A DNA stretch of 61,077 bases, the filler included, from Sphacelaria rigidula (Eukaryota): the NCBI GenBank assembly GCA_964200075.2. It is 8 parts of 8 records of this genome, joined end to end, with 100 filler letters (N's around TTAATTAATTAA, not from the genome) between each part and the next. Parts side by side here need not be neighbours in the genome. Positions count along the whole stretch, not along the records: positions 30,590 to 38,136 come from CAXNAA020014395.1; 7 more parts are not named here. One strand, given 5' to 3'. The notes beneath the pieces are model-generated. The model made no database searches. It was not told the origin of the DNA and was given only the letters and a program-made list of their open reading frames with translations. Below, piece by piece: positions 2,461-50,200 of this stretch. Every line of letters begins with the position of its first letter. The first letter of the stretch is position 1. The position numbers and the translations under genes were made by a program.

Positions 2461-4345
2461 CACACGAATTTATGTGCCGATGCTGCTGCGCCCATGGGTT
2501 CTCCATGAGTGTCATTCGCAAGCATCGACACATCTGGGAGTTTCTCGGACCTCCCAGATGGTTGAGTGTTTTTATTGGTGGATTTGTATGGATCAGTGTG
2601 TACGTTGGTGGGTGAGGCGTTGTCTTTTGTGTCAGGCGCGAAAACTCACGTCAAACAGTTCGTTGGCCGATTGTTTCCATGCCACTCCCAAACGGGTCTG
2701 GTGAAGTAGTTTCGTGGGACTATTTTGGCCCCTTGCCCCTGACGGATAGTGGTCATAAGTATATTTTGTTGTTCACGGATAGATTTTGTCGACATGCGGT
2801 GATACACGCCGTCGCTGCCAGTAGCTATAACGCGGAAGATACCGCCAACATTCTTGTATACACGCATATTCCGCATTGGGGTGTGCCCAAACGATTGTTA
2901 TCCGATAACGGCCCGCATTTCGCCGGCAAGCTTTCTGCTGCGATCAGTAACCTCCTGGGTGCCCATCGTATGTTTACAAGTTCATACCATCCGTCCACAA
3001 ACGGTGGGACCGAACGAGTGAACCATACGATGGCTCAAATGCTTGCAACGGCAACCAACGAACGACAAACGGACTGGGACTTGCATTTGCCCCTTATTCA
3101 GATGAACTACAACAATTCAGTCAATGCCACAACGGGATTGGCTCCCAATGAAGTTCATATTGGCCGTATGCCCAGATTATCACTGACGATGTTCGAACGG
3201 AAATCTTATGGGGGCCATCAGAGTTCAGATAGGGATATCGCGGAGTACTATATTTCTGTTAGTAATCGCCTTCGTCTAGCGTATGAGGTGGTACGCGAGC
3301 AGAACCAGATCAACGCAGCGAAAGTAGCCAGGGCAAACACTGTGTTGGATGATGCGATCAACAATCGTCCGGTGTGGAAGGTAGATCAATGGGCATGGGT
3401 ATACAATGATGTGAAGACCGTAACTCAGGGGGCTAGCTCCAATAAGACGTCGTTGGATAAGGTCTTGAAGTCGAAACTATCCTCGAATTGGACTGGCCCC
3501 TGGAAAATCTTGACGGCAGGGCCCTGTGATGCTGCACCCGACAATAGTCCGGTAGGCGAGAAACTTTTGTATTTGGATTTTCCCACTGATGAACCTGGCA
3601 TCAAACCCAGAAACCGAGTATCGATGCTGAGGTGTAAACCGTGTCTGCCCCCGCATGATGCATCCGAAATGCCCAAGCAATTGCCAATGGGTCTCAGTCA
3701 GTACGTGTTGACCAACTATGCGACCAAAGCCCCCCCGTATCATATGACGGCTGAAGATGCCAACGGCCTCCTTGAGCGAGTAGTGGTAGATCGCATCTCG
3801 GGCCATCAATTAGTCCGAGGTCGTGGAAATAAAATAGCGGTTATGTACCAGACTCATTGGAAGGGTATCATGCGTGTTACATGGGAGCGTGAGGTCGGCT
3901 TACGTCACTTTCGTCGGGAAATATTGCTGTATTGGGTAGGAGATACCGTCCAACACCGCCCGTTGAATAAGATATTTAGGTCGATCGGCAAGGGAGCTGC
4001 CGCTCGGGAACTGGCACGACAGCACTCGGCGCGGTTTGCTGTAACAGGGTATAGCCTTCTCTCGCGTTTACAATACATGCGGTCTTTTCACGGACAACGG
4101 TTGCCAAAGGGGGCGTATTTTTGGTATAAGGCTTTGGATTCCCTGTGGTGGTTGGGTAAGATTCATTTGGTCGATCCTGCATCTGACAACTCCTACTTTA
4201 TTCGTTTCTTCGATGACCCGAGCCCCCTTGAGATTCGTTTGGACGATGCCTACTACACCGAGGTGCCTCCAACGACATGTCCAAGGCGATCTCGACACAG
4301 CCGTTCTACGCAACACGGACACCGCTTGGGAGGCAGAAGGCTCAT
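2461..4345 (+). pseudogene. pol: Gypsy integrase: HHCC zinc finger, DDE core, C-terminal chromo-like and Tudor/PWWP-like modules
   Basis: HECH...HLG...CLLC; WDYFGP, LSDNG, GTERVN; WTGPWKI; VVDRISGHQ...MYQTHWKG...TWERE; GAYFWYKALDSLWWLGKI...YFIRFFDD; frameshifts near 2650 and 4260. Confidence 0.9.
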
Positions 4346-4539
4346 GATGCCGCATCCGTGTCTCCTTCCCCACTCACCTTGCGTAGTATACCATGTTCGA
4401 ATGGCTTGTCTTGCATCGTAGCGTCGTTGGAAAACCATGTGTTCCCCCCCCCCCCCCCTTCATTTTTGTGTAGCCTCGTTCCTCTAGTTGTTGTTGTATT
4501 CTGTGTTTATGTGTAGCTTGGTACCTTCTTGTGTTTTCT

Positions 4540-20932: not shown

Positions 20933-23634
20933 CTGCAAGATCGAGAGACGATGGGCATTGTGAATGGTGTCTTCGCACGAACGATTGCGTTTTGCATTTT
21001 ATTGGCAGTGGACAATATTCTGCAGAAGATTGGTATTTCAACCGTGAATAACAAACGGCAGGGCGCAAGGCGCGTGATTCCCATCCGCACCGCGCACTCG
21101 ACCGCCAGAACTCGCGAAGGAAGTCGCATTTCCTTGCATGGTGTGCTCCACCCACTGCACCCGTGTTTTCAGTCAACTGCACTCACACCTCTTGTCCTCT
21201 GATGCTCCTTGCATCAATATTCGCCGTCATATCTCTTACCTCCGATCGTGCTCTTGTCGACTTGGCAGCGACACATTGTGTCGGTAACTCTGCGTCGAGA
21301 GCTCAGAACGACATGTAGAGCGTGTACCGTGCGTTTCACATCTACTTTATGGTGTTCACTCTTCCTTTTGCTCAGCAGTACACCGATCGACGACACATGT
21401 GACTCGAAATACGATTTACTCCGCCTGGTAAGTTTGTTGTCTTCTGCTTTCGCTACGAATCAAGAACGCAAGTGGTACCTGTCGGAGGCCGTGGACGAGA
21501 CGCCTAAGATGCGAATGGAGGCATGGTTGGCATCAATGAAATGCCGAGGGCTCCAGTCATCCGACGACACACATAATCCGCTGCTGTACATCGACTCGCG
21601 CCCCGCCGCTCGTGTCCAAACAATCCAAAGGAAAGCTACACACAGTAGGTTATTTTTGCTTGAAATTGTGTTTTTGGATGTTTCACTTGATTGAGAAAGT
21701 CTCGAGAGATTTCGAAAGGTTTCATTATGGAAGGAAGGAGAGACTGGCACGTAGATAAGAAAGTTGAATGTCGAACGAATTACGCGCATCTTTGTTTGGG
21801 TCAAAGTCGTATTCACATGTCAGTTACTTCTCACCATTTGCTTTCTGCAAATATCAAATATATGGACTTCCACAACTATCAAAAGTCAATACAGGACTAC
21901 CGCGTGCGAAACGTAAAATAGAAAAATATTCATGAAGGCAAAACCGTATTTTCAAGGCTACCCAAAGCGCATCTTTATTTGTTGAGCTGATCTATTTTTG
22001 ACGTCGGCCCCTCAATGAATCACGTACCCCCCGTGGGATTGGCGTCGGTTAGCGATGACGCCATAAAACACGCCACTCACTACGGAAGCTAGACAACCAG
22101 CTTACCGTTTTTTCTGCACGTTTGCGTTTGTTTTTGCGGTAACCATGATGGTAGTCGAGCTATATCATGTTGTGCGGGGTGGGAGAATCTCAACTCCGCA
22201 CGATGGGGATGATCGCACCACGTAGTCTTCGAACGATAAGGCACCCATGAGGCAGTGTATAAGCCGTGGCGGTCTCAGGAAGTGGCGATACCAGAAAATA
22301 AAGCAACTCATTGTAGGCTGTTATCCAAATGTGAGATAATCAGTAGGCTCTCAAAACCTGAGGGAGGACGGCTTCCCTGTCCCCCAGCCAGGCATTGATG
22401 AACGAGGAAAGACTTTCAACTGGATCCGAAGCGGCCACCTTAAATCAGGTTGTGAGAGCCGTTTGAATTTTGTGGATGCAGTTGATGAAACTCAAACTCT
22501 CTAGCTTTCACAGATGTTGCGACTTCGGTGCAGTTTGTCACCGTGACCACCTCTGAGTAGACGGGAGTACGCGCTCCAGCAACGAAAGGTAGCTATGATC
22601 CGGTTTGCCTGCCGTACTGCCGACAGCGTCGCGTGAAAGCCACAAGGCCTTTGCTGTCGGCGGTTGATGGCGTGGGTCTCGGATACAACGACATGCGATT
22701 GATCGTATAGCACTCTCGTCTCTCCTCCCAACTTGTGGTAATCCATGACCTCCTGACATCGGAATAATTATTACTTATGGGAAGCTACTCGTACTGTACC
22801 GAGCTGTCCACGCGACCAGCGTGTGCTGCAGATTGCCTATGCNNNNNNNNNNNNNNNNNNNNNNNNNNNNNNNNNNNNNNNNNNNNTTAATTAATTAANN
22901 NNNNNNNNNNNNNNNNNNNNNNNNNNNNNNNNNNNNNNNNNNGAGGCAGCTCACCCTTCATGCGACTCGCCGAATACACCAGGGCGCTTCGCGCTTGGTG
23001 ATTGAGTGCGAGCCTGGTCCGGCGAAAACCCGGCGTGCTCCATCCCGGCTTCGTAGGGAGGTCAATGGTCTGATGACTATGGCATGCATGATCATGAGTA
23101 CACACACACACACACACACACACGCACGCACGTTACTCAATACGTGAGCTAGGCGACCAGGCCACCGATTTTTTTTGCGCGCTTACGTTTTTCTTTGCGG
23201 TAACCATGATGGTAGTCGAGCTAGACAATGTTGTGCGGAGTGGGAGAACCTCAACTGTGCACAAAGGGGATAATCGTACTATGAAGTGTTTGAACGGTGA
23301 GACACCCATGAGGCAATGTATAATCCGTGGCTGTCTCTGGAAATGGCGATACCAGAGAATGAGGCAGCTCACTGTAGGTTGTCATCCGCATGCAAAATAA
23401 TCGGTAGGCGTCAGGCCGAACAATCTTAGCAGAATGCAACTCACCCTTCATGCGACTCGCCGAACACACGACGGCGATTCGCGCTTGGTGATTGAGGGCG
23501 AGCCTTCGGCGAAAACCCGGCGTGCTCCGTGCCGGCTTTGTAGGGATGCGAGGTCAGTGATCTTATGAGTACGGTATGCATGATCATAAGTCCCCCCTCC
23601 CCCCCCCCCGCCCGCCCGCCCTCTCCGTGAGCAG

Positions 23635-26600
23635 GAAGAGAACAACCTTCTGGGCGTCACCTACAACTGGCAAAACCAACCCCGCCCTGCCAGCTACGAT
23701 GACGTCCGAGCCCGATACCCACATCTACCCGCAAATCACCTCTCCCGCATCACGGCGGAGTACCTGCGGCAGGTCTACCTCCTGGATCATGGCACGATGT
23801 GGAGACCGGGATTCGTAGATGTGGTGTCGGTATTTGGTGGCTTCCAGCCTGGGGCCACCGGGGCCTCACGCCAGCGGCTTGGTCCAGCTGGTGATCAGTC
23901 ATTGTTGAGGAGGGTGGAGCCAGTTGGGATGCAGCGGGTGGCGGTTTCGGTCAGTCGGTGCAGTCGTTCGTTGTTAGCTTGCTGCGTCGTACTGTACGAC
24001 TGGGTTTCGCCTGCTGCGTTTTTTTGTACTCGTTTCGTGGTGTACAGCCCTGCTACATGCGGCGGCGGTATCATGATTATCATGATCACTATTTTTCTTG
24101 CCATTTTTGGTATCTTCGTTTTACATCCTCTTGTTTCAGACGTGATGCGGTGCTGAACGTTGTAAAGCTTATTGCGAAGGAATGATCTGGTTAGGAAAGT
24201 GACGATCAGCCACCCACGACTTTTTTTTTTATCTTGTAACTGCTGGTTAAGGGTACCTCCCCTCTCCACGGCTGACTAGCGTGCACGTGTTCAAAGGTGC
24301 CACCCTTCAAACCGTACTTCAAGGCTCAGGTTGGTGTACCTTATCTCTCCCACCTTGAAATCAGTGATTGTCTTAACATGCGCATATCAACGCTCTGATC
24401 CGCATCCCCACCTTTGCATACCCCGCACGCACCCCTCTCTCTCCTCGATTGATCGTCCCCTGCGTGTAGCAAGCAACAATGCTTCCGGCCCACAAGCGGG
24501 GCAATCCCCATCTTGTCAGACTATAACGAAATGGCTTCACTCTCCTCTACTCTCCCCCGCCGCCTGTATATCGATGCGCTCACGTGATGCGTGTTGGACG
24601 CAGAAACGAAGGACGGAATGTCGGAGGGAAGTAGTTTCGGCATGTCTCAAGCTTGTCGAGATACATGGTCGCGAGAAAAGACTGAGATCCAAGCATTTCG
24701 ACATCCGACGGAGGCTGAATGACGCAATCGAGCAGGAGAGCAAATACAAGGAGGAATCGGAGAAGGCTGTACAGGACGTACTGGTGACGAGAGGCTTTGC
24801 AAAGGAGAGGGAAAACGCAGGCCAGGAAAAGCAGCTAGAGCTCACCAGGTGTGTTGGGGGCGCAAAGGTTTTGTGTGTGTGTGTGGAGAGAGGTCGGCTC
24901 TTTTGGGGGGAAGGAAAAGAGGAGGGGACGGGAGCAACAATGAAGGGTACACTTCTGACATTCTCTTGTAGGGTACACGATCATGAGTACGAAGCCTAGT
25001 ATGGACGAAGTATGAAATTTTTAAGTATTCGTCACGTCGAAAATGCAGTATGTGTCTTCAGGGGTCTACAGTACCTTCCCCCTTTTTTCTATCCGAGGAA
25101 CTGGCAAACAGTCATCACAACATGTAAGATGGGAGGCGTGGCATCCCTGTATGGTTTCGCCTTCTGCATCTATCATAGTGATGTCCGCGCACCCTTTGAA
25201 TAGACGGAGCTTTGGGGGCAGGGAACATCGCTTATCGACTGCTCTGACGAGGAGTCGGGGTCTGTTGGTGCTTCACATTGTGTTGATATTGGTCCATCAG
25301 GGCGGGCGGGGGTGGGAGAGGAGAGGGGGGTTGGCGCCGGACACGACGATTACGTTTTTGGAGGGGGTGGCTAGACTTTGGGAGGGGAAGTGGTGAAGTC
25401 TGGCAACTTCGGCATCGTTGCGGGAGGCATACTACTGTAATGTTGTCTGGCCGTTCGTAGTCCTGCGCTGCTCGCGAAGTCGGCGAAAGGTTGATGTTTT
25501 CGCCGGGTCGTCAGACTTTACGTGCGTTGGTGCGCCACATGGAGGAAGGAGTTGAAGTGTCCGGCATCGTTTTTTCTGAATGCGTAACTGACGGCAGATA
25601 GGCTATGCGGGCAGTCGAACAAGACGAAAGACATGCCCTCGTACACGATCAGGCGATTACCATGTAAAGCCAAGACGGCAAAGTATACCATTGTAGTGGA
25701 GCACCTGCTACGGTTTTAGACGTAACATACTGGAGACACGATACACACAAAACACGCCTGGTGTCAGAGAAGAGCTAAGAGTGGTATGATATTCAGCCGT
25801 CAAAGTTTGATGGCATTTGTTGTTGGCGTCAACGCCACCAGGAAGTGATGCCGTCGCAGATATGACGCAGCGCTGCCGCCGCTTTACACCTTTCGGTGCT
25901 TTCACTTGGTTTGGAATGCTGCCCCTCAAGTTCGCGATGGTATTCCTTAGGTAGAGGTGCACCTGTGTTACACGAAGTAAAGAGTCGTGAGCGACGGAGT
26001 ATTCATAGCATGATCCTGTCAATGACCCCGTCGACGAATGGGACACCTCAGTTCGAACTCATTTTCAGAGTGACTGGTTATGATGACAATCCAACCGATG
26101 CACACCCCCACACGGAAATGATCAAACGACTTGAAGTCAACTAGAACGGTTGCCGGAAGCAAGCTCACGACGATTTTTTCACCACATGCCGCTGCCTATA
26201 TATACACCTGCCGCCGTCCTGTTTAAATTTTTCTAATGATGATTAGGTTGGGCCTAGAGAAGGAGGCGCAAAGTCTGGCAGCCGAGCGCGACGCTATCCC
26301 GGAGGCAATAGCGCGAGCGAAACGACATAAAGACTTTTGTTGGCGCCAAGCGCGAAATGACCGCTTCGTCACCAACTCGTTATCTCGCTACGACTTCCAG
26401 GTGAAATGATTAGTTGACTTTGATGGGACTACATTTCTGCTTCTGTCGGTGGGCTATCCCAGTGCTACACCATGGCTCCCGAGTCGTGCTGCAGTAGAGG
26501 AACACACACACACACACATCTATGAGGTTTGAGTTGTCATGAGCCCTCTATCCCATCCAAAAATCGACTTATATATGAAATATGTGAGAGCACGCCACGA

Positions 26601-28901
26601 CTAGCAGTACAATGGGCTAGGGATATCCCGAATGAATTTTGAAGACGGAAATTTCCTCACCCATGTTCTCGTGTAGCTCCTGACTTCACGAGCCCATGAA
26701 CGAGAAAATGATCTGGGCCCCGCTGGGCAACCCCTGCCGTAGCAGGATGCTCCCTTGGTGACAGGAATAGAGTGGTGGTGTTCTTCTGTTCAGTTTCCCT
26801 CGCGAGGGTGATAAAGCCGTGCACTTTCCACCACCCGTGTGCAACCAACCGTTGTAGGCCAGGGGCGTATGCACGCATCATGTTCTTGCCAATCGACGAG
26901 CCGGAGGAGTTCTGTTCGGTGGAGGCAGGAGGACCGGTCCCACCCCCCTCAGACGCATGGAGGTGAAGATGGTCGCAGAGAAAACTCGAGAGCTGGTGAC
27001 GGTCAACGGGCACGGGATAAATCCTGTTTACTGCATCAAGTACGATCAGACGGGGCAGTATATCTTCACCGGTGCTGACGACCGACTCGTAAAGGTATGA
27101 TGCTGTTTCGATAACGCGAGATTTATTTTTGCGAAGAATGACCTATCATATGCAGGGGGTAGAGGTGAGGGAGGATCTACAGCCTCGAAAGTGCTGCCCA
27201 CTTGACGCACGTGGGAGAAAAATACTAGCGTTCCACGCGTACGTCGGGTATTTTATTTTGCGTCATATCCACAGCTGAAGATGCATAAGATTTAGAACCG
27301 AAGCGAAAGATCGCTGGGTGATGCGTGCACCTTTCTGCCTTTCTGCCTTTCTGCCTTTCTGCCTGCCTGCCTGGGACTGAGTGGCGATTTTGTGATTATA
27401 TCCACGAATATAACAACAGTCATCTATGGAATCATCACTTTCAGTATCGTTTAGGCACCAACCGCCAAGCCCCGATCCATCCATCCATTCATCTATCCTT
27501 TTGTTTGCCCTTGGCGCTGGTCCTGAAACTGAAACAGGTGTGGTCGGCGATCACTGGCCGCCTACTGTTGACTCTCCGCGGCCACTCCAGCGAAATTACT
27601 GACCTTGCCGTCAGCCCGGACAACTCCTTGTTGGTGAGCTCGTCCGAAGATCGGAACCTGCGGGTCTGGGATCCCCGCACGGGTGCGTCGCTCGCCGTTC
27701 TCAGGGGGCACAGCCAAATGATTCACCTCGTGCGCTTCGCCCCCGCGGAGAGTATACTGGTTTCTGCTTCGGAAGACGGGACTTGCAGGGTCTGGGACCT
27801 CAGGAATAGGGCCAGGTGTGTGTGTGTGTGTGTGCTCGTGTGCTCGTGTGCTCGTGTGCTCGTGTGCTCGTGTGCTCACGATTCAGGTGTAGACTTGTCA
27901 CACGTATTTTTTGTGAGTTGTGAGTAGAGGTGCGGGTTGTACTTGTGTTATTTTCACGTTCATATAGATTTTCCTTGGTTACGCCCTGAGTGTTGTAGAT
28001 CCCCCCCGGAAGAAGTGCGCCCTCCTATCCCCAGGCTTCGTGCCCGGTCGGGTGCAAGATTTTTACGGGCACGGGTACGGATCAGAAAAAGCAAGGCAAG
28101 ATACGGAAATCTACTTATGTGTGTCCAAGTCCGTCCCCAGGAGGCTTACCCCCCTCCCCACCTCGATTATTCCCCTCGCCTGCCTGTGCAAATGCCCTCA
28201 TTTCACCGCGCGCCCGGCAAAATAACGATTGCATAAAAAATACGCCGAAACATGGGGGAAAAGTTTGGCATCGGAAGAAATCATCCCAATAGTGCTCCCG
28301 CACACGAATGAGCAAGGAGTCTGTGTGCCGGTGAAGTGCCTATCCGTCAGCCAGGCCGGTAACCTGATCGCTGCCGGCTGCAACGACGGCGCTGTGACCC
28401 TGTGGTCGTACTGGGACAACGACGAGCCGACCCCCAGCGGCCACAACACTCGCAGGGGCAAGCCTAGGGACGGCGAGGTCTTCCGCCGTCAGCGCCCGTC
28501 TGCCGACGACCGCTCACCGTCGCTTGCGCAAGCGCCGGCTGCGCCGTGGTCGCCCGTGGCGCAGGCGGCGGCGGCGGAGGGTGCGGTGAATATGGCACCA
28601 TTCGGGGCCGGTATCCCGGATTTTGGTATGGCAGATAGTGGCGGTGGAGCAGCTTTCGGTCCCTCTGGAGTGGTCGGTGCGGGCGAATCGGCAGGCGCAA
28701 CTGGCATGTTTCCTGGAAGTGCGGCGGGAGCGACGGCGGGGGCGGGAGGGTCGGGGGCGGCGGGGGCGGCGTCCGCTGGGAACGGAGAAGGAGCGCGTCG
28801 GGGGGGGGGTAGTACGCGCGGACGGGGGCGTGTTGGCGGTAGGGCGGAGGAGGAATGGGATGCGGGGCCTCTTGAAGTGCGGCGCGTCTTGAAGCTGATG
28901 G
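23635..28901 (+). CDS. BRWD/PHIP-like WD40 protein, partial; exons 23635-23949, 24604-24848, 26247-26400, 26858-27094, 27538-27815, 28264-28901
   Basis: N-terminal LLGVTYNWQNQPRPASYDDVRARYPHLPANHL resembles the BRWD N-terminus; [53 protein letters not shown]; all five introns GT-AG and phase-compatible; bromodomains not in contig. Confidence 0.88.
27816..27878. repeat. (GT)n then (GTGCTCGT)n intronic simple repeat
   Basis: Directly visible. Confidence 0.9.
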
Positions 28902-30589
28902 GTGAGCGGCGGATTGGCATGTATTTGTACCCTTCGGCTATGCGTGTGTGTACTGGTTTTCCCCGTGGCGGAAAATTCATTTCCTGTGCTCTGTTTTCAT
29001 TGCAATATTCCGGTGTTAATTCTGGACAGCGCTTGCGCTTTTTTTCCGTATGCTGCTTCCGTTGTGTATGCGTTGCTCGCAAGTAAGTGGTATCTTTGAC
29101 CAGGCCGTTCATAAAGTTACCACCTTCTGCACCCCGGATATCTGGCGAAGAATAAACCGAAAGACCTCATCCATATGACCTCTCTAGATATCTCACAGCA
29201 CCCGCGTGCAAAATTTCAGGGTCTCACTCGATAAAACGGCGTGAATTATCGCCCGAATGTGGTTTGAGTATACAACTGAACGCGGAATCCCCCGAACTAC
29301 TTGATTAGAGTATGCTACCAACGTTTTCCTTGTGCGCTTGAGCTTCAATCAAACGTTTGGGACCAGCTTTTCGAGCTACGCAACGAAACCTTGTACGATC
29401 GTTCCTTAGACTACCTCCGGACGGGTCGATTTTGTTTATTTATTATGAAGCAGTTTGTACCGGCTTCTGGGGTGTTCACGCTGAGACCACCGGAAGCCTG
29501 AATGAGCGGATGGCCATTAAATTGTTCTTAGACGGTGTTTGTTTCAAGTCGTAGCACCCATGTCTACCGAACTGCCAAGTGTACGAATGATCGGGCTTTT
29601 CGAAGAAAGATGCGAGAGAAATCGTCAAGAGACTTTCGGGATCTTCGATGCATATCATCATTGGAAATCCGACGTTGCCAAATCCCCACCTCACCGAAAT
29701 ACCACGTTTTGGGGTATAACTCAATCTCATACAAGGCGTTTTCTGAGATGTTTTTCGCGTCAGATTCCCTAGCTGGTGACGATTACCAAGGTTTGATTTT
29801 GATGAGATTGGGTTTAATTAATTAAGTCGAGATTTCGCATTTTTAATTTCAGAACAATTCGGAGGCATCTGATTAACCGAGAAACGTTTTCACCACCAGC
29901 GCCACGGTGGAAAACGCAATAAAAAATGTTGCCATGCCATACTGTTATTTTGCTTCTAGGGGTCACTATGATACCAAATACGTTTTTAGCTAGTCAGTTT
30001 CGCGTTCTGTATCTAATGCGGAATGCATTTTGGGCATTCACCCTGAACCAGCCTGTTCATACAGAGTAGACACCAGTGCTGCAGACACATTTGATACCAG
30101 TGGAATTTAAACATCTTCCGCCGAACTAATGTTCGAAGTTTCAAACATCCCCGTCACAATTCGCACATCCCCCCCCCCCCCCGTTTTGAGCTTTTTGGTG
30201 CCGTTGTGGGGCAGAGTCCAGGTCCTAATTTTCAGCTGGGGTGGACCCTCTCAGGCGCACGCTGTTGTTGTAGTGGCGTTGAAGTTTCCTGTCATTTCCA
30301 TGTGTGGCATTGTAACAGTACTGTCTGTAAAAGTTTTCATGCGGTTTCAGTATCGCTAAAACCTTGCACAAAACGGTCGCACATTCCCTCCCCCCCCCCC
30401 CCCCCCCCCCCCCCCCCTTCTTTTTCTTTTTTTTGTCAAAAGTTTTTTTTTTTCTTTTTGGTGTTTTGTGGTATTTTGTTGTTATAACGNNNNNNNNNNN
30501 NNNNNNNNNNNNNNNNNNNNNNNNNNNNNNNNNTTAATTAATTAANNNNNNNNNNNNNNNNNNNNNNNNNNNNNNNNNNNNNNNNNNNN

Positions 30590-31067
30590 TGTTGTCTCAG
30601 GCTATTCCAGATTCGGCTACAGATTTCTGTGACAGAAAACACTCTCGTTTTTTTCGGAAGTCACCCACATCGGCAGACTACAAGTTGCCTGCTGTCTGCT
30701 GTGCGGCATTTGTATGTACACTGTGCGTGTGTGTGTTGTAGTCTCATCTATTTTGGACGCCAGTCTAGACATTTTGGTATATATGGGTGCACCAGCCGGG
30801 GTCACACACAGAAGGTCCGTGTTCACTGAAACTGAAAAACACTGCATACTGCCGTGTTGTCTGGTGTTGAGTGTAGTACTCTGCAGTTCATACAGCACTG
30901 CAGAGTTGTCTGGTGCTGGGTGTACAACCCTGTAGTCAAGATAATGGGGTCATATTTTAGCAGTTTTCCGAAAGGCTCTGCTCGTTTTTTGAAAAGTATT
31001 CCGAAAAAAGGAGAGTGTTTTCTGTCACAGAAATCTATAGCCGAATCTGGAATAGCTTGAGACAACA
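30590..31067. mobile_element. MITE with ~70-bp TIRs
   Basis: TGTTGTCTCAGGCTATTCCAGATTCGGCTACAGATTTCTGTGACAGAAAACACTCTC inverted at ~31000-31067. Confidence 0.9.
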
Positions 31068-31762
31068 ACCAATTTAGAAAATGGAATTTGGCCGCTTTTC
31101 ACTCTCAATCGTATTCTCTACTTTCATTCTCACGAAAACGTTGTTAGTAGCGGTTTTGTGTCTTTCGTATGGCTCGTGGGTGAGAGCTTATGCCCAAAGA
31201 CTGGTCCTGAAATAGCCTGAGTCGCAATCTGCTCCCGCGACTTTTTTCACCTGAAGCCATGCTGCAGGGGCTCGCCATTTTTAGCTTTCCTCCGTTATTT
31301 TTCGTCGGAACCGGTTTTCGTTTCTTCCTTGTCTTGTTCTTCTCCGTCCCGTTTCTTTCCTTTCCTCTTCTTGCTTCTGTTTTGAATGTTTTCTTTCATT
31401 TCTAATATAATACGAAGTAGCGAGTTTCCCCGCTTTGTTCACCTTGGGTACGTCAGTCATGCGGAAAATGCCCACGGCTGGATCATGACTACCTTGGGGA
31501 TCAGCTACTATATTTTCCGACAGCCATTCAAATATCAAGTGATGTACAAACAAAACGTTCTGAGGGTATTGGCTCCGCTCCAGGCGAAACCCCAAGACAG
31601 TAATGGCATCCTCACTTGCACGTTTTCATACTACTGGCTGAGAGTGGACCCCGAGGGACATGGATCTAAGTCGCTATCCATCACTCTGTTACAAGGGCCT
31701 ACAACGGCACGTTCGGGGCTCAACTTCAAGCAAAACCGGAAACTACTTCAGCGGTAGCAGAT

Positions 31763-34180
31763 CTACACCATACACGACCTGACGCCGCTCTCTAGAAGTT
31801 CCTTCGACAGATGGCGTCCAATGAAAACCATCTTACAGCGCCGGGTCTCTCCCTCTCGCCACGCGCTGCCGACTACCTCCGTCGGCGCTACCTCAAATAA
31901 ATCCGCTACTCCCTGCACGACGAAGCGCTCATCACGACCGTGAACGCTCACCACCCCCTTTACGCGATACACTTCGGTTCCCCCCGGAGGTGGCTCCCAC
32001 AGCAAATCTCCGAGCCACCTCTCGAGACGCATAAGGTCCAATGACCCGGGCACTTCTACCGAATGCGTTGTCACTGCCGGGTCGTGCACTGAGCAAGGCC
32101 CCTCTTTTACAACAGCAGCGCATTCGGTACAGTCACCTTCCCCATGATCATGGACATTGTTATGACCGTGACTGTGATGCTGCTTTTCCTCGGCCATTTG
32201 TTTCTGGTGACTGTCACCCTCCACTTTTCTTGACCCCGGCTGGCTGCTGTCGCCAGAGAGACCTGCCGGTCTTGTTTCTTTACTAGCGTCTCCGCTGCTC
32301 AGCGACGGTTTTACTGTCGGCGCCAGACCAGGGTCAACCGCGAGTGCAAGCTCTGGATCGAAGCACTTGGTATCGAGGATTAAAGACAAGTTTACCACGG
32401 AGCGTTGTGTGCAATGCACTTGTGCGACAGCGTTGACGTGCCGTACTTGAGTCAGTACGTCATCTAGATCCTCCGCCGACACCAGGTCCGTCTGAAAGGA
32501 GAAGGTTGCAAAAACGGAGTGTGAGATGCAGGTTTGCCGCGGGGGTCGTGCAGAGTGTTGGGTGGTCTGCCTGATGTCGACAACGCCAATAACGAGGTAA
32601 CAAGCACGTCTTTGTGCGGACGCCCCAACCACTGAGGAAACACCACAGTGCACCAGAACAAGTCATCAATATGAACACATATAACGTGTGCTGACCTTGT
32701 TGACCAGTATGCGGTCGGCGTATGCCAGCTGCACGGCGGCCTCGTTTTGGTGCACGCCAGATCTGTCCTCCTGAGCGCTCTCTCTACCCCCTCCGGCAGC
32801 GGCACCACGCTCAGAGCTGTCTTCTCCCTCTGTTGTATCCGACGAAGTACGTTGCAACTGTCGCCGGATGTTCTTGGCGTCCACGAGCGTGATGATGCCG
32901 TCCAACCGCAGCACACTTTCCAGAGCATCGTCAAGCCAGAAAACACTAGCTACTGGACCCTGCCGAGGACGCCGAGTCAAACGTACAGATGAGTGAACCG
33001 TACCAAAATTAACTCACGCAACTAAGCAAAACATACACTATAATCATGTGTCGAGCAGAACGCTCCGGTGCGTCTCCGCTCAGCTCACATGTATTCTATT
33101 GCACCCGCTTCAAGACACGGTTATCACATGCAATCGTCAACAGCTAAACAAGCACAACAACCATAAAGAAAAGAACATTCCAATGAAAAAACACAAATCA
33201 TGCGTATTGTGGAGACTTGTGTTGGATATTATATCGAAAGTTTTGATGTATCGTATCGAAATATCGTCATCGTTATCGTATGGAAAACATTTCGATAAAA
33301 CGATAACGTTTTGTCGAATCTGGACACGTTTTCTCCTAGGCTGGGAGACCTTGATTAGGCCGATTCCGATGGGAAATAAAGCCATGTATCCCAATTTTTT
33401 TGCCTGCGGCGGCACGAGCCGAGGGGGGTGGGGGGGGGATTTGGAGCTCGAACAGCAAGCGGACTCGCTGGGCTTGCGGCGGTTCGGCTTCGCCGAAATT
33501 TTTCGAAATTTACCTTCATCGAGCGCTGAAAAAGCTGATATCGTATCGAAGTGCTAAATGGTTCGACATCCAACACTAGTGAAGATCACATATGTTATGA
33601 GCGTGATAAACACCAGGATACACATGGAAGCCGGGAAACAGTCTCGGGAACAAGGTCCGCCAGTGACTTACATGAACGGACTCGAAACATTCAAACCTGT
33701 GAAACTGGATCTTTGGCAACCTAGGCAACGGGGTCTCCGGCATAAAGAGCTCGGAACGAAGGAGCCACTGCATAAACCTTAATTGAACATTGCCGGTACT
33801 GCCGTACAGGTCCGTTCAATTGTTCTTCTTGCCCATCATCGGCCCACGGCCAAATCCTTGCCTAAACGACAAGGACAAAATCACACCTCACTTTGGAGAT
33901 CCTTCGGCAGCAGGGCACGACAGCGTTCTTCTTCGGAACCCGTAACTCTACCGCCTCACCCCTGTCGAAGCCTAGTTCACAGTATATTGTAACACAGTAC
34001 ACGAAGGATACCTACCGGGTTGGCAAGGCCTGTAGTCTCGATGATGATATAGTCGAACTTGTTTCGTCGCTGCAGCAAGGCCTCGAGAGTGGTCACCAGA
34101 TCGTCCTTGACCGTGCAGCAGATGCAGCCGTTTTTCAGCTCAAACAGGTTATCTTCCATCAGAGAACCATCGACACCGTC
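31763..34180 (-). CDS. ZNG1: COG0523/CobW-family zinc-chaperone GTPase (ZNG1/CBWD-like); last three exons 34180-34016, 32959-32696, 32491-31763
   Basis: ELKNGCICCTVKDD, IIIETTGLANPGPV, LDGIITLVDA, QLAYADRILVNKTDL, His-rich linker, CobW_C YRVKG...VQGV...VFIGR; phase-0 GT-AG introns; Walker A exon not found in contig. Confidence 0.93.
33217..33578. mobile_element. Short-TIR (hAT-like) MITE in ZNG1 intron
   Basis: Ends TTGTGTTGGAT / ATCCAACACTA with clustered subterminal TATCG(AA) repeats. Confidence 0.55.
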
Positions 34181-34231
34181 CTGTAGAGCAGGGGGCGTGA
34201 AGAGTGATCCATTATCACAGAGTTGGGGTTA

Positions 34232-34977
34232 GGGCCTGTCTTCGCACTTTTTTTTTCGATCGAAAAAATGAGGCGGTGGAACCGATCCGAGCGAAAATTT
34301 CTCGTTTTGATGCAGTTGGGTCCGGATGGATTGTCAAGCTTTCGATCCAACAAGTACAGTGAAACGCGTGAAACGGCACATGGTCACTCGTGTTCAGTAC
34401 AGTCTGGACTGTCTGCAGTGCTTCCAAGGAGGGTGTGTTGAGTGCGTGTGTGTGTTTTGTGGAGGAAGATATAAAGGAGAAGCAGGCAACGTGCAGCTTC
34501 GTACTGCCTGCATTGTCCATGAGCGTGCACGCAACTCGGTGGCCCATCGTACCACGCAGTTCCGTCGCTGATCCCTACCATGAGAGAAGATGTGCAAGAT
34601 TTCGCCAACAAAAGATAAACAACGCACACCCGACTACTGCAGTGTGTCTATCCCCGTGCTCAACTCGTGCTCTATGCTGCTGGGTTGCGGTGGTGGCTGA
34701 GAATGAGTTGGGTGGAGTTTGCATGGTCCTGTGAACAGGTGTTATATGGCGTGGTGGTCTGCAAGATTGGAATCAAGTGCCGTTTCGTGCCTTTCGACTG
34801 CATGTTTTTGATCGAAAAAAATCGTTTTCTCCCTCGTTGCATTCTTCTCAACGCGCCGCTAACTATAATTTTGAGTTGAAGCCTTCGAGGAACATAAATG
34901 CGGTGCACCTATCAGATCGGCAAAAAAAAATCGACCGCACTTTTCCGACCGAAAAAAAAAGGTGCTAAGACAGGCCC
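34232..34977. mobile_element. PIF/Harbinger-type non-autonomous element
   Basis: TIR GGGCCTGTCTTCGCACTTTTTTTTTCGATCGAAAAA vs TTTTCCGACCGAAAAAAAAAGGTGCTAAGACAGGCCC; TTA duplication on both sides. Confidence 0.85.
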
Positions 34978-35413
34978 TTAGGCTACTTATTATGTATCGA
35001 AACAACTCTATCAGAAAACGCGTTTTCTGATGAATGACCAAAACCCCACTTATTATGTCATTAGAAAACGCGTTTTCTGATAAAAAAAAATCCGATACGA
35101 GCTGGGCCAGCCTAAAAACGGAATTAACCTGTCAGAGCAATATCTCATCACCGGAAACGAATTACGCCGTGAACCGCATATCAAATTAATCGTCTCAACA
35201 AGGAGCGGATGCCCATATGCTCTCCAGCGTGGGCCCATGCCTTTCCTTTGATTCCTATCATCCTACACTGAAGTTAAGTCGCTTGCGAGTTGCGTTGAAG
35301 AAAAAAAAACGCATCTGAAACCGTCGGATGCTGCGTTGTGCCGACCAAAATGCGGTGGAATTAGATAATTGAGGCACAAGTGGCCACGTCCGCCACTTGT
35401 GCTGGTGGCAGCG

Positions 35414-38136
35414 ATGGACATGAACGACGAAAACACGCCACCCAGCTCTTCCGCGAGCGGACATCTATGGTCGAAGACTTCTGCACCCACTGTTCATGTA
35501 GAGAGGAAGTCTAGAAAGTATCGTCTGTCGCTGAGGTTCACACCAGGACAGGGCGAAAGGCCCGAGCGGAAGAAATCTTCCCGTTTCGAAACACGGCAGC
35601 TGGCGGAAGCAGCTGCCGAGGGGTGGAGGTTAAACTGGGAGGAAGGGAGGAGGGGTCGACCCACTAGTGGCAACTTGCCAGGAGCGATCAGGAGCGTAGG
35701 TCATGAGCAATCTGTCGTTCCCTTGGGTGAGTCTTTGGAGGCTGTTGTTTGTTACTCGTACTGCTTTTTGTTGCTGCTGTAGTCTGTACTGCACATATGA
35801 CGGTAGAAACCACCCCTCCGTGGCAGCAGTCGTGGTCGGACCAAATCTTGACGCCTGAGGTTATGTTCAATAGGGAATGTCGATCGTTATTGGCGGAACA
35901 TTCCTTGTGTGGCATGCAGTGCGCAGCGCATGCTGCTTCACTTCCGTTTGAAGTTACGTTCGAGACGGTGTCCATCAGCAACCACCATGCAGATATGTTC
36001 ACATCGAGGGTGGTAATGCATGTATGGCACTTTCTGGTCGTTTAGCCGCACGCTTCGTCTGCCTTTTGCACTTCGCGAATACATAAGAGTTGTGCTTTCA
36101 CGAGTGCCACTGCTTGTGCTGTTGCGCAGCGCCATCTGTAGGGGTGCAACTGCTGCTGTTGCTGCTCCTCCTTGCTGCCGATGAAATATGACGCAAGATA
36201 TCACTCTTCCGACGATGACGTGTGGGATCTCAAACTAATCACAAATATAGTGTGCACATGTTGTGGTGCGGATTCGTGGTTCATTTGTCGCGCCGAAGGG
36301 TGGGATTTGGAATGGACGGGATGGCTGCTGCTCTCCTGTACATTAAACTAACGGAACTGTAATCCACGACGACGAAATCCAATTCACTGTCACATTCCAC
36401 AGGGGAATCGATCAACAGCAACAACGCCCCTCGAGTAAACACATTGGGCTCCAACAAGGAAAATAGGCAACCCAGTTCTCCCGTGGCGGAACGGGAGTGG
36501 AAGAAGACTTCTACACCTCGTGTGACAGAGGAGAAGCCCGGAGGGATGTTTCGTTTAAGCCTTGAGTACACGCCTGCGAGAGGGAAGAAGGTTCAGCGGG
36601 TTTTATCGCAGCGGTTTGGTACACGTGACGAGGCCGAGGCAGCGGCTGAGGAGTGGAGGTTGAGATGGGAAGAGAAGAGGAGGGGTTTCCCCACTGATGA
36701 TCGCTCGCCAGAGGTAGCGACCATATCCCATTATAAAGAACCTGCGATTCCCCGAGGTGAGTCATCACAGGTCGTGCGTATGTTGTGACTGCTGCGCGTG
36801 CTGCTGCTGCTTCCTGGAGGTTTGACGCGATGCTATAATGCACAGTCTCCATGATGACGTTCGGGTACGGCAAGTGTATTCGCCCAACGTGATGTTCTGC
36901 AGAAGACATCATTCATTGTGCGCGCACGCTGCATTGCAAGGCGTGCACCATGCTGTCTATACGGTTGAGAATTGTCTTGCTACTCTTAGAGCCACAGTCT
37001 GTCCCACTCTTATGGCTGGTGTCCCCCGTTTACAACCTTACTCAAACGCCCGGTGATACATGTGCGCCGACACACTTCGGTGATCCTGTTGTGTAACCCA
37101 CCGCGGCGAAATCCAATCGCTCGCCACATTCCACAGGGAAATCGCTTAACAGCCTCGCCCATCTCAACTCCGTCGATGAGCGAAGACTTAAGCGGCTACG
37201 CCTGGAAGGCCACCAAATGACCCGCACGAATTTCGCTTCGTCGTCGGCGCTTTCCAGCCGAGAGCGAAGATGCGTGGAACGAGGTGGGCGGAGGAGGGAT
37301 GAAAGGATTTCTGGCAGATTCAGCAGGCGTGCTTCCTACCTTGGTCCACGGATCGCAGGGCTGAATACGAAGAATAAATACCTCGATTCATTAATCGAGC
37401 GCCTTGGGGCGCATCTGTTCCCACGTCGACATATGCTACTCCTGCCCGACGAGGACGTGGACCCACAGATTCAAAATGCCGCAGAGCTGGGTCGCAGCGT
37501 GCCCGCGCCTGTGTCGGCCGTGCAGATGGAGCGTCTGGGTTATCAAGCGTATACAACCTTCGAAATTCTGAAGGCAGAACGTGAGCGTAATGGAAAAGTC
37601 TTGGAATACTTGGAGGAGGCCAATCGTATTTGCGAAGGAGGCGCGCCCGCAACAAAAACTGCCGTGAGGACCGCCGATCGTCGCGTGTACGGCCTCATGT
37701 CAGATGTGCTAGCGCTTCGCCATGAATCGTCTCTGTTGAACATCGCGGTGGACGTCGTGATGTGTTCCGACCTCGCCGGCGTCAAGCCTCGGACAGTTCT
37801 GAAATGGGCGGACGAATTTAAGAAAACCAAGGGCTACTTCAAGCGCGACGGAAGGGGGGTGTATGAGAGGGAGTGGATATTCAACGAGGAGGATTTGAAG
37901 CTGAAGCTCTTACGGTGGCTCAAGTCGCAGAAGCGGCTCACTATCAACTCGATCCGTCGATACATCAATGACGGCTTCTTTGAGGGAGAAGGAGGGATGA
38001 TGAAGCTGAAGCGGTATAATCTGACACTCCCTATCTCCGCATCCACGATCCACTCATGGGTGACAAAACTGGGGTGTACGTACGAGAGGCACAGTCAATC
38101 GTATTACACTGACGGCCATGAGAGACCTGATGTAGT
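35414..38136 (+). CDS. Spliced DNA-transposase gene (probably IS630/Tc1-related); exons 35414-35726, 36403-36756, 37137->38136, truncated by contig end
   Basis: Both introns GTGAGT...CCACAG in phase 1 giving one open frame; HTH-like AGVKPRTVLKW and ISASTIHSWVTKLG...YYTDGHERPDV; catalytic core beyond the contig. Confidence 0.75.
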
Positions 38137-38831
38137 NNNNNNNNNNNNNNNNNNNNNNNNNNNNNNNNNNNNNNNNNNNNTTAATTAATTAANNNNNNNN
38201 NNNNNNNNNNNNNNNNNNNNNNNNNNNNNNNNNNNNAAATAAAAAATAATAATTTCTTTAAATTTTTAAAGACCTGAACGAAGTACAAAAATGCTATCCC
38301 CCCCCCCCCCCCCCCCTATCGTCCTCATCGACTGATGGTGCTGACGACCGAACGCTGAGATGTACATCCGCACTAGGGGTAGGGCCCGGAAATACAGGCA
38401 TTGATCGTTCTAGCGGGCACAAATCTTCGACGGGTGGTGATTCGTGCCCCAACGCTGATTGTGAGAATATGCGTACTGCTACGAGAATGCTGCCGGAGAC
38501 GTGTAGGGACGATACGTCTCCGAAGTTTACTTGCTGTACTAGCCCTGCCCGAATCTTAAGCCAAGCAACAAGACCGTCTACAGCTGTTCGTAGCGTTGCA
38601 ATATCAAACGGAAGTACCGCTTAGGTGACGTTTTGATAGTAGTCGAATTAGCAGCCACCCCTGCTAAGGATAGTCTGCCCGGGGTTACGAAGAAATACGT
38701 GTATGTGGTGTATATGATCAAGGATGCGTGTATCGCGTCATGGTCGTTCGACCTTCACGATGATGAAACACTTACTCTATGCCGGCATAACACTCTCCGG
38801 GAAGACATACCTTTGTTCAACGGGACATACC

Positions 38832-47252: not shown

Positions 47253-50200
47253 GGTATCAGCGGCCGTGTCTCCACGGGCACGTGCGACGTGAACTGCCTA
47301 TCCGGTGGGCAGTGGCTCGCGGAGCAAGGCTTGGACCCCGAGGATGCTGTCGTCATGGTGGCGGAGAGAGCCGTCGCGATGCGATTGGACCGCTGGGGTC
47401 GGGAACACGGGCTCGTCGCGCCGACTCTAGGTACGTGTGCATGAGGCAAGCACGGGGCCGCTTTAGGCTTTACTTGTAAAAAACGGGTTAATGATCGCCT
47501 TGACTGCGAAGTACAAAAGTACATGGCCGTGTGCCATGATCATGTATACTCGTATGATTTATTTGTATTAAATTTGAGGGATTTGATTCGATTCGATTCG
47601 ATGCGATTGGGTTTTTCACGGTTGATTGATCGATTCCCCATACATATGTGGTGAGAATGTCGGTGTGAGTGTTGTGTGACAACGGCTCGGCCCCTCGGAG
47701 ATCAGTTAATGTGGGACAATCAGTCAAGCCAAAGCCAATCAATGTATGTATGTATGTATGTATGTATGTATGTATGTATGTATGTATGTATGTATGTATG
47801 TATGTATGTATTTATGTATTTATGTATTTATGTATTTATGCGTGGATGTATGTATGAGTGTATGAATACGTATTTGAATTCGCAAGTATAAGTTATATAT
47901 GCCGAATGAAAATGTTTGTGGCTTGATTTGTGAAGTGTTTGGCCGCGAGGGAGGGAGAGAGTACGTCTACGCCGAGTCGATCTCCAAAAAAAACATGTTT
48001 GATACGTACTTGCTTTCAGTTCCGTCCTTCTATTATTAAATAGCAAACTCGAGGGCTTGATGCACCGGGAACTTGCGTTACTTGAAACCGAAAACCGACC
48101 CTTCTTTGTATCTTCTCCTTCATTGGTTAATTCCTTTCGCTCTACTACAAGAACCCGTTTCGAAAGGGATGCGTGGTCAATGATCACACGACTAAGGCAA
48201 GCGAGAAATGAGTACGCCGTCCTCCCCCCCCCCCCATCCTACTACAAGAAATGGATTCAAGCACGCGGGTAGCGAAACGAATCAGGGTTCATATTTCAGT
48301 CCCGTGAGGGAGGGGGTGGCAAAAATCGCACGGTAGCGTTTGTGCGAGAACACATCATGTGTGTGTGTGTAGAAATGTCGATGAGTTGTGCACCGAGTTA
48401 TTGAACTCCTATTATGTTTTCTTGTGAAATGAAACATGGGTGAGGTGGCAGCTTCTTATCTTAAGATCTGCAATCAGGTTTGCCATACGTCACATGGCAG
48501 ACAGCTTTACAGAGGAACACGAACGAGGCTACCGAGCAACATGAAAACCTCCTTCCACCCACCCACCGATAGTGGCCACAGACGGCGAAGCAGGAGGGAT
48601 GCCACCTATAACAATGTTTTCGTGAGATTTATAGTAGGGGATACGATTGAGAGTGAAAAGCGGTCAGGTAGTGAATGAATCATTTCAATTCCGAAATGCT
48701 CCCGAACCACGCCCGATATGCTTTCTGTAGTAGCTTGCCACTGAGGCCCTCGATATCCCTGAGTAGGGTATCGACGTGTAGCTGTAAGCACACGCTAGTG
48801 ATGGAGGCAAAAAGAACCACACACGGAAGGAAAATTTGGCCAAGTTAGAGCGAATGATTAGAGGCACTCTCAATCAGCGCTCTACTCTCAATCTCACGAA
48901 TACGCTGTTATATGTAGAAGGTTTTTGTGTAATGCATGGAAGAACCGTAATGAGCGCCGAAATGTTGGAATTGTCTCTTATTAGAAGTAGGAACCATACT
49001 CCGCCTCGAAAGGCATGCGTAGTCAATGGTCAAGCGACTAAGGCAAGCAATAAATGAGTACGCTCCCCCTCACACCCACCCACCGACCCCCCTGTCCATC
49101 ACCTCTCTATCAGGCATGACCACGTCGAGTAACGGCACCGATGACGACGAAGATGGCGCCGGAGATAAGGGCGGCGGAGACCCTACGGAACAGGGTATTG
49201 CTGCTTTGGAAGGCAGCCACGGTAGCATCAGCGGGGATAGCGGTGACGGCAGCGGAGGCGGGGGCGGACAAAGCGGCAGCATTAGGGTCTGGATTGGAGC
49301 GGGCGAAACGACGGAGAGTGTGGCCTCAGCTGATGAATTTCGGCTGAGGTTGCTCGAGGCTGTGCTGGGGCTGTACAGCAACCATCCGCTGAACTACGCG
49401 GAGCTGGAGTCGAGGTTTCATGCACTATCGTTTTTCCTCTGCGCGCTGCCGTACTACGAGAATCGGGAGCTGAAAGGACTGGCGCTCAAAACGCTGGAGG
49501 TTATCTGCGTGAGCTTCAAGGTTAGCCTTGTCTTGTTTTCGCTCTTTGGATGGGGGGGGCGTACTCATAGGGGGGGGGGGGGGGTATACACACTGTTATA
49601 CTTTTATACAGAGTGGATGTGTGGGGTGACCTTGTCCGCTTTTTTATTGTNNNNNNNNNNCATTTTGTGTCGCACTGTGGCGCATTTGGCTCCGTGCTGG
49701 CCGGAGGAGCCGACGGGTGGGGGGTATACACACTGTTATACTATTATACAGAGTGAATGTATCGGTCGACCTTGACAGCTTTTGTATTGCTATGGTGGCT
49801 GACCTCTCTCTTTTGCGCTACTACTGCTTGAGTAAAAATAGAGTCAGTTTCCATTTCGATAATATTTTACACGTACACACGTGCCAGCTCTTTGCATGAA
49901 AAACTTGTTACCATTACTTCGTATCCACCCCCCTCCCCCATGAAACCTGTCATTTGGATCACGGCCATGGTTCATTTCACCACTCGTACTCAGTCCATAC
50001 CCACACATCGGACAGATCATGATCCGTCTGAGATCACTGAAACAAGAGAGACTCTTGGATTTGTTAGTCCAAAAACACAAAATATGTGACCGCGGAGTCA
50101 GAAAAGTCAAATGCGCTACTCGGCGTGCTCGTTCTCCGGCGCTGAAGGGAGCAAACATGACAAGGGGGGGGGCAAATGATCCGGATCATGATTGGGATCA

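Follow-up and report, generated by a model that had tools for sequence, protein, structure and literature searches.

The window studied here is a stretch of 61,077 nucleotides (nt) from Sphacelaria rigidula (assembly GCA_964200075.2), and consists of eight 7547-nt pieces joined by 100-nt spacers, each made of 44 N, TTAATTAATTAA and a further 44 N, with stops in six frames. The spacer word TTAATTAATTAA is also present once inside a piece (29814–29825), and a gap of 10 N occurs at 49651–49660. The G+C content is about 50%, and the genes have GT..AG introns. The piece at 30590–38136 (record CAXNAA020014395.1) carries a three-exon, transposase-type gene on the plus strand, as well as a CobW/ZNG1-like GTPase gene on the minus strand and several repeats. 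The transposase-type gene is cut at 38136 by the end of the piece, and not by the end of a contig. It is probably the 5′ part (555 codons) of a large DDE-type (aspartate-aspartate-glutamate) transposase gene, from a protist-wide family outside Pfam that is distantly related to IS630/Tc1/mariner (DDE_3), with its N-terminal module doubled by duplication.

The three exons, joined by script, give 555 codons without a stop; both introns are of the GT..AG type and in phase 1. Coordinates and splice sites are those of an earlier proposal made from the DNA alone (the sequence-only reading), which is confirmed as an observation. The donor of exon 1 is TGG/GTGAGT, written TGG/GTGAGTCT for intron 1. No start codon precedes the module in exon 2, and this exon must consequently be spliced to exon 1. 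Exon 3 is matched by one of its relatives, P0001, in a single tblastn segment that spans 37154–38137 (P numbers denote such relatives throughout). Exons 1 and 2 each encode one small module, and the two modules are aligned with 15 N-terminal modules of exon 3 relatives in a 17-row alignment, A2. The features are collected in Table 1.

Table 1. Features of the window, with positions counted along its whole length (HTH, helix-turn-helix; ORF, open reading frame; aa, amino acids; MITE, miniature inverted-repeat transposable element; LTR, long terminal repeat).
Feature	Position	Strand	Description
Exon 1	35414–35726	+	313 nt; starts at the first ATG of ORF 35369–35782; ends in phase 1; module 1
Module 1 core	35447–35674	+	76 aa; row 2 of alignment A2; 50% identity to module 2 core
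Intron 1	35727–36402	+	676 nt, GT..AG; in-frame stops, ORF ends at 35782; acceptor CACATTCCACAG/GG
Conserved block a	36358–36419	+	last 45 nt of intron 1 and first 17 nt of exon 2
Exon 2	36403–36756	+	354 nt; symmetric, phase 1-1; module 2
Module 2 core	36477–36704	+	76 aa; AlphaFold2 model on A2
Intron 2	36757–37136	+	380 nt, GT..AG; donor GAG/GTGAGTCA; acceptor identical to that of intron 1
Conserved block b	37092–37153	+	last 45 nt of intron 2 and first 17 nt of exon 3
Exon 3	37137–38136 (open at piece end)	+	basic region, predicted helical region, HTH, YYTDGHERPDV; within ORF 37097–38188
HTH region	37766–37969	+	exon 3 residues 210–277; Pfam MerR_1 E 0.01, below cut-off
YYTDGHERPDV motif	38102–38134	+	last conserved block before the cut; conserved across relatives, where it precedes the DDE core
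CobW/ZNG1-like GTPase gene	31763–34228	−	cobW domain exons and CobW_C exon; His-rich insert in last exon
CobW-like exons	within 33977–34228, 32666–33013 and 31763–32662	−	
MITE-like element	34229–34980		~746 nt; 26-nt terminal inverted repeats, 92% complementary; TTA on both flanks
Twin palindromes	35010–35034, 35060–35084		perfect 22-nt palindromes built around GAAAACGCGTTTTC, each preceded by TTATTATGT; 50 nt apart
Inverted repeat	30590–31067		64-nt arms, 95% complementary, 350 nt between; starts at piece boundary and may be cut
LTR-retrotransposon pol region	218–4421		RVT_1, RNase H, Integrase_H2C2 and rve over three overlapping or adjacent frames
BRWD1-like N-terminal domain and WD40-repeat ORFs	23590–29086		

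Exons 1 and 2 are paralogous, with 43.7% identity over 103 aa (E 5.6e-18) and 43.4% over 106 aa (E 6.4e-22) by tblastn. The two introns are also paralogous at their 3′ ends: conserved blocks a and b are 82.5% identical over 63 nt (E 1.6e-8), and a 32-nt core pattern of this block has exactly two sites in the window (expectation 0.00; none of 100 shuffles reaches two). The tandem duplication of exons and the kinship of the introns, both claimed by the sequence-only reading, are thus borne out, the latter for the intron ends. Identity differs by segment: the exons have 56.5%, the final 45 nt of the introns 78%, and the remaining intron parts 54–56%, the last value being about the level of a forced alignment. 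The value for the final 45 nt is more conservation than splice signals usually need. Between the modules, nonsynonymous divergence (dN) is 0.55 and synonymous divergence (dS) is 1.16, which is near saturation, and dN/dS is about 0.47. Both modules retain the family-conserved positions T..P, FR[IL]R, and G[YF]xTxxxA.

The homology of the duplicated unit begins about 10 nt upstream of the ATG, the position of which is TTG in exon 2, and extends ~25 nt into the next exon, where exon 2 starts with GESINS and exon 3 with GKSLNS. These limits and the identities point to a tandem duplication of about 1 kb, which would have begun shortly before the start codon, taken in intron 1, and stopped within the first ~25–40 nt of the next exon. 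It would have created an extra in-frame exon of phase 1-1, and a protein with two tandem modules. A duplication with these breakpoints would explain the paralogous exons, the paralogous intron ends, and the shared phase altogether. Judged from the exon identity and the forced-alignment level of the intron bodies, the copies are old. That 78% identity has persisted in the 45 nt preceding each acceptor suggests constraint on both acceptors, or use of both.

A phmmer search with exon 3 against 1.84 billion representatives finds 304 relatives at E ≤ 1e-3, 86 at E ≤ 1e-10, and 14 at E ≤ 1e-30. P0005 and P0035 match the final 87 and 47 residues ahead of the cut at 89–90% identity, and both continue into GQDESIYK; P0005 (401 aa) also reaches VDHSAGHAK, and P0035 (243 aa) stops before that motif. 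The long relatives P0024, P0098, P0133, P0154, P0156, P0185, P0196, and P0200 add SRGHILLMSPKYHPEIAGAGIEYSWG-type motifs. The triad of the longer relatives consists of QDES, D(W/H)S(S/A)GH, and HPE(I/L)AGxGIEYSWG, and these D1, D2, and E motifs recur with a D1–D2 spacing of ~119–127 aa and a D2–E spacing of ~154–262 aa (nine relatives with both motifs located). The family protein has the order of one ~65-residue module, a basic and helical linker, the HTH, the YYTDGHE block, a C-x-C pair, and the triad. HTH profiles match weakly and in a minority of 150 relatives (HTH_28 in six, HTH_23 in five with a best E of 2.1e-7, HTH_29 in three, and HTH_32 in two), at the place homologous to the HTH region of the window.

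The link of this family to DDE_3 comes from its more distant members. A search with the core of P0023 yields 58 proteins, among which P0206 matches that core at E 1.5e-25 and the window itself at 38027–38137 (54% over 37 aa, E 2.5e-7). DDE_3 is matched by four of the 15 more distant core relatives scanned (E ≤ 0.017), namely P0206 at 29.6 bits against a cut-off of 28.6 and, more weakly, P0207, P0205, and P0209. All four matches run through the FLPKFHCELNPIERVW motif, aligned with HPEIAGAGIEYSW. In the ESM Atlas, the core of P0024 has DDE_3 clusters as its first neighbours (0.94, 202 shared features), and its ten best matches belong to one clan.

Several results speak against this affinity. DDE_3 is matched by none of 20 and none of five close or long relatives even at E ≤ 10, the long relatives match no Pfam transposase family at the same threshold, and NCBIfam has nothing relevant for eight proteins. 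Because the close relatives lack a direct DDE_3 match and the distant ones have it, the link is transitive. The D2–E spacing given above is far longer than the 34–41 aa of classic Tc1/mariner elements, a range that is familiar for these elements and reflected in the family names of PMC13469147. Many exon 3 relatives are short fragments or odd gene models. Separately, a profile of the whole family finds chance-level matches only among PDB sequences, and exon 3, run against bacterial and archaeal genomes in a search able to detect close relatives only, gives 56 pattern matches, none of them confirmed. The sequence-only description of exon 3 as an IS630/Tc1-type transposase frame with an HTH is right in kind, in view of the triad in longer relatives and the transitive DDE_3 link. 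The exon 3 family is a distinct, large-bodied lineage. Two names considered for it are rejected: ISL2EU is grouped with PIF/Harbinger in the abstract of PMC4482050, and Dici is a DD34E fungal family according to an excerpt of PMC13469147.

Source-named members of the family come from Pompholyxophrys and Lithocolla (rotosphaerids), Pylaiella littoralis (a brown alga), and Pleurochrysis (a haptophyte), and one Atlas neighbour cluster of the P0024 core is mostly diatom. There are several fragments of ~90% identity, and several paralogues in one transcriptome with the source name Pompholyxophrys punicea. Chromatin-reader additions are common: SAP and Chromo domains occur in many of the 58 proteins matching the P0023 core, a Tudor domain (PTM/DIR17-like) in P0191, and a bromodomain in P0136, and members with additions of one or other of these kinds include P0160–P0180, P0183, P0191, and P0136. 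This suggests chromatin-directed targeting or repeated domestication. P0014 has an internal tandem repeat of the segment starting GKSLNSL, and P0001, P0002, and P0007 are without parts of the core; either deletion or faulty gene modelling within the same family accounts for these four. In the Atlas, ‘C21orf140-like’ clusters (PF27940) stand beside the DDE_3 clusters for the P0024 core, which hints at an origin of the chordate C21orf140 protein within this DDE_3-related group. A literature search for C21orf140 shows nothing on such an origin.

A clean profile built from A2 matches 25 of 209 relatives, each of them once, at the N-terminus, and no relative twice. P0024 and P0156 are single chains that hold the module, the HTH region, and the complete triad, and P0156, which is outside the set used to build the profile, has its module matched at E 2e-11. 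Exon 2 itself matches none of the long proteins. Second module matches from an iterated local hmmsearch are rejected as drift onto the YYTD region, since the clean profile gives one N-terminal match per protein. P0001, P0002, and P0014 start or have a junction at G-K-(S)-L-N, which corresponds to the first codons of exon 3 and fits a putatively conserved intron position there. On these comparisons of sequences, module plus HTH plus DDE is the ancestral and normal architecture of the family, and the doubling alone sets this gene apart. Since the relatives already have one module with the HTH and the DDE core, the duplication supplied one more module to an architecture that existed before it. 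The proposal that exon duplication built a new multi-domain transposase is not supported. The supposed novelty of an AP2/integrase-type domain on a transposase is not supported either: AP2-integrase domains have been linked in print to transposases and integrases of selfish elements since 2005–2006, according to a passage of PMC1702500.

The use of both modules has its own alternative. Exon 2 is symmetric, with phase 1-1 and 354 nt, so it can be skipped without a frameshift, and one- and two-module isoforms are both possible. Exon 2 could be regularly skipped, or be a decaying duplicate, in either case leaving a one-module protein, or the copy could be a dead, truncated element. Such a one-module gene would agree with the relatives, as none of the 25 module-bearing ones has two modules. 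However, exon 2 retains an open frame, canonical splice sites, and the conserved module residues despite 43% identity and a dS of ~1.2. The conservation before both acceptors, with the other intron parts at background, likewise suggests that both are in use. The alternative is rather unlikely.

In a second alternative, a transposase has been domesticated into a host gene, such as a DNA-binding regulator, and its doubled module would serve the recognition of host sites instead of transposition. The intact frame over 555 codons, the clean splice sites, and the dN/dS between the modules are in line with this. The other seven pieces contain neither the rest of the gene with its DDE core (tblastn-type comparison) nor a further module exon (best other tblastn matches at E of at least 0.04), so that no second copy is seen in them, but seven 7.5-kb pieces are far too small a sample for judging copy number. 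The frequent fusion of the family to chromatin readers (SAP, Chromo, the Tudor domain of P0191, and the bromodomain of P0136) is what a reused scaffold would give; chromodomain fusions are, however, also known targeting devices of active elements. In addition, the ~90%-identical P0005 and P0035, which differ from each other, resemble recent paralogous copies of a mobile family. Domestication is an unlikely account of this gene, and the 5′ part of a transposase gene with two modules remains the preferred reading.

The module comprises ~65 residues, with three strands and a C-terminal helix confidently predicted, which is the pattern of the AP2-integrase class, where a three-stranded antiparallel sheet packs against the helix in about 60 residues. 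The AlphaFold2 model on A2 (predicted local distance difference test, pLDDT, 82.6; predicted template modelling score, pTM, 0.67) has strands at 15–19, 24–31, and 40–47, and a helix at 50–65. A G[YF]-x-T-x-x-E/D-A motif is located at the junction of strand 3 and the helix. The single-sequence model of exon 2 has the same order of elements at lower confidence (pLDDT 57.7), and the topology of module 1 is presumed from the module 2 model. Double-stranded-RNA-binding domains (dsRBDs) have an α-β-β-β-α order with an N-terminal helix ahead of the sheet. Unlike these, the predicted module has no helix before strand 1.

Database affinities of the module are weak and of one kind. In Pfam, exon 2 matches AP2 (E 0.053) and Arm-DNA-bind_4 (E 0.1), both below cut-off, and the 17 rows of A2 give Arm-DNA-bind_4 in three (best E 8e-4), Arm-DNA-bind_3 in one (E 0.013), and AP2 in one (E 0.021; 15.6 bits against a cut-off of 33.3). 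The ESM Atlas places an Arm-DNA-bind_4 cluster first (0.94), followed by Tn916 Integrase_DNA, Integrase_N_phage, and lambda Arm-DNA-bind_1, and nine of the ten best named matches fall in one clan. The top 50 of Foldseek in BFVD include four integrase rows, and the arm-type domain of the HPI integrase (3jtz) is found only at rank 41 (E 1.1), with the weak first, single-sequence model.

A number of observations count against an AP2/Arm assignment. Exon 1 alone matches no Pfam family, and none of the module matches from exons 1 and 2 or the 17 A2 rows reaches a curated Pfam cut-off. The first Atlas match shares 144 of 256 features, below the 170 typical within a family. Foldseek with the module models returns nothing at E ≤ 0.001 in PDB or BFVD; the PDB list is led by dsRBDs at E ~0.1 and a template modelling (TM) score of at most 0.49, the best being 8igd_B (E 0.11, probability 0.96, TM 0.47), and there is no AP2 or ERF structure in its top 50. 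A module profile against PDB sequences has nothing relevant, with matches at chance level. Of the claim that the exons carry AP2/Arm-like domains, the β-β-β-α topology stands in the AlphaFold2 model and the only database affinities are to Arm/AP2-integrase families; all of them are below threshold, and structural searches give no match at E ≤ 0.001. The AP2-integrase (Arm-type) reading of the module is the best available, resting on convergent weak signals and a predicted topology, with no significant match among them. Another small β3-α nucleic-acid-binding fold, such as a dsRBD-like one, or a protein-interaction unit is improbable: dsRBDs such as 8igd_B do lead the PDB list, with no AP2/Arm entry in that top 50, and no module profile match passes a curated cut-off, but the predicted order lacks the dsRBD helix, three independent weak signals (different Pfam members, language-model neighbours, and the four BFVD integrase rows) lead to one clan, and the N-terminal place of the module on a recombinase mirrors the lambda and Tn916 integrases as described in an excerpt of PMC3537659.

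With the AP2-integrase reading of the module, a division of labour can be proposed by analogy. The HTH would bind the terminal repeats of the element, as in Tc1/mariner. The Arm-like modules may contact ‘arm-type’ sites of their own in the subterminal regions, in the manner of the lambda and Tn916 integrase N-domains, and could thereby help to assemble the transposition complex. Two modules would then read a longer or doubled site.

The surroundings of the gene include further elements. The CobW-like exons all lie to the left of the transposase-type gene, and motif scans find no CobW P-loop exon on the minus strand of 34150–38136 or elsewhere in the window, though a motif split by an intron would escape them. 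The transposase-type gene may lie in the first intron of the CobW/ZNG1-like gene, or may simply be upstream of a truncated view of it. The MITE-like element sits between the nearest CobW-like exon and the transposase-type gene, and its TTA flanks are presumably a PIF/Harbinger-type target duplication. The twin palindromes are 330–400 nt upstream of the ATG, and their 14-nt core has three sites in the window at two or fewer mismatches (expectation 0.28; none of 100 shuffles reaches three). They could be promoter elements, part of the end of the element, or candidate binding sites for the modules. The inverted repeat at the start of the piece probably represents another small repeat family; next to it, a 59-nt segment (31092–31150) matches 48606–48663 in another piece at 88%. 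In the remaining pieces, the LTR-retrotransposon pol region is probably frameshifted, and the BRWD1-like and WD40-repeat ORFs are probably exons of one WD-repeat gene.

A wider interpretation, which is at present unlikely in its entirety, places the gene in an undescribed superfamily-level clade of eukaryotic cut-and-paste elements. Its members would begin with an Arm/AP2-like domain and an HTH, their DD(~200)E core would be the sister of the ‘KFHCELNPIE’ DDE_3 group, and chromatin-reader tails would be frequent. A DDE transposase would have recruited an integrase-style arm-binding domain for the recognition of subterminal sites, and in the present copy exon duplication would have doubled this reader, whether to match a doubled site (the twin 22-nt palindromes, for instance) or as a step towards a host regulator. 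If true, the locus would be a live example of the route from a transposase to an AP2 transcription factor.

Compared with IS630/Tc1/mariner (ITm; DDE_3, PF13358) transposases, the family has a similar N-terminal HTH region followed by a D..D..E core, the latter seen in relatives. The E motif of the relatives, HPExAGxGIEYSWG, parallels the ...PxLNPIE..W of ITm; distant relatives that carry FLPKFHCELNPIERVW match DDE_3, in one case above the cut-off, and the Atlas neighbours of the core are DDE_3 clusters. In contrast, the family proteins are much larger (~900–1450 aa), and have an extra N-terminal Arm/AP2-like module, the conserved YYTDGHE block, the C-x-C pair, a longer D2–E interval, and frequent C-terminal SAP, Chromo, Tudor, or bromodomain fusions, and the close relatives are without a direct Pfam match. 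The family numbers hundreds of proteins in protist data, Pfam lacks a direct model for it beyond the DDE_3 matches of distant members, and its D–E spacer is very long, for which reasons it may be missed or left unclassified in transposon annotation.

The literature searched, which does not cover Repbase, contains no description of an Arm/AP2-type domain on an ITm-type transposase. The closest parallel in it is TcMar-2_Ec32 of Ectocarpus, which according to an excerpt of PMC12477816 is a Tc1/mariner element with an acquired N-terminal putative DNA-binding EsV-1-7 domain and an intron-containing gene. Both systems comprise an ITm-type transposase in a stramenopile, an extra N-terminal putative DNA-binding domain, and introns, and the present family also has its Pylaiella littoralis member. 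The added domain differs, being EsV-1-7 in Ectocarpus and Arm/AP2-like here.

The AP2-integrase superfamily includes the AP2/ERF and ApiAP2 proteins and the N-domains of lambda and Tn916 integrases. The predicted module resembles it in having three strands and a helix, a length of ~60 residues, and an N-terminal place on a recombination enzyme. The N-terminal AP2 domain of lambda Int contacts distant DNA segments, the arm sites, as stated in a passage of PMC3537659. The window module differs in that its sequence matches are sub-threshold only, that it is joined to a DDE-type enzyme instead of a tyrosine recombinase or an HNH endonuclease, and that it occurs twice in tandem. Should this reading be correct, the arm-binding domain class of tyrosine integrases, from which plants, apicomplexans, and diatoms drew their AP2 transcription factors, is also used by a DDE transposase, and the locus would offer a concrete eukaryotic transposon lineage for studying that link. 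The exon duplication shows a putative DNA-binding module multiplied within a gene, which is the arrangement of multi-AP2 transcription factors.

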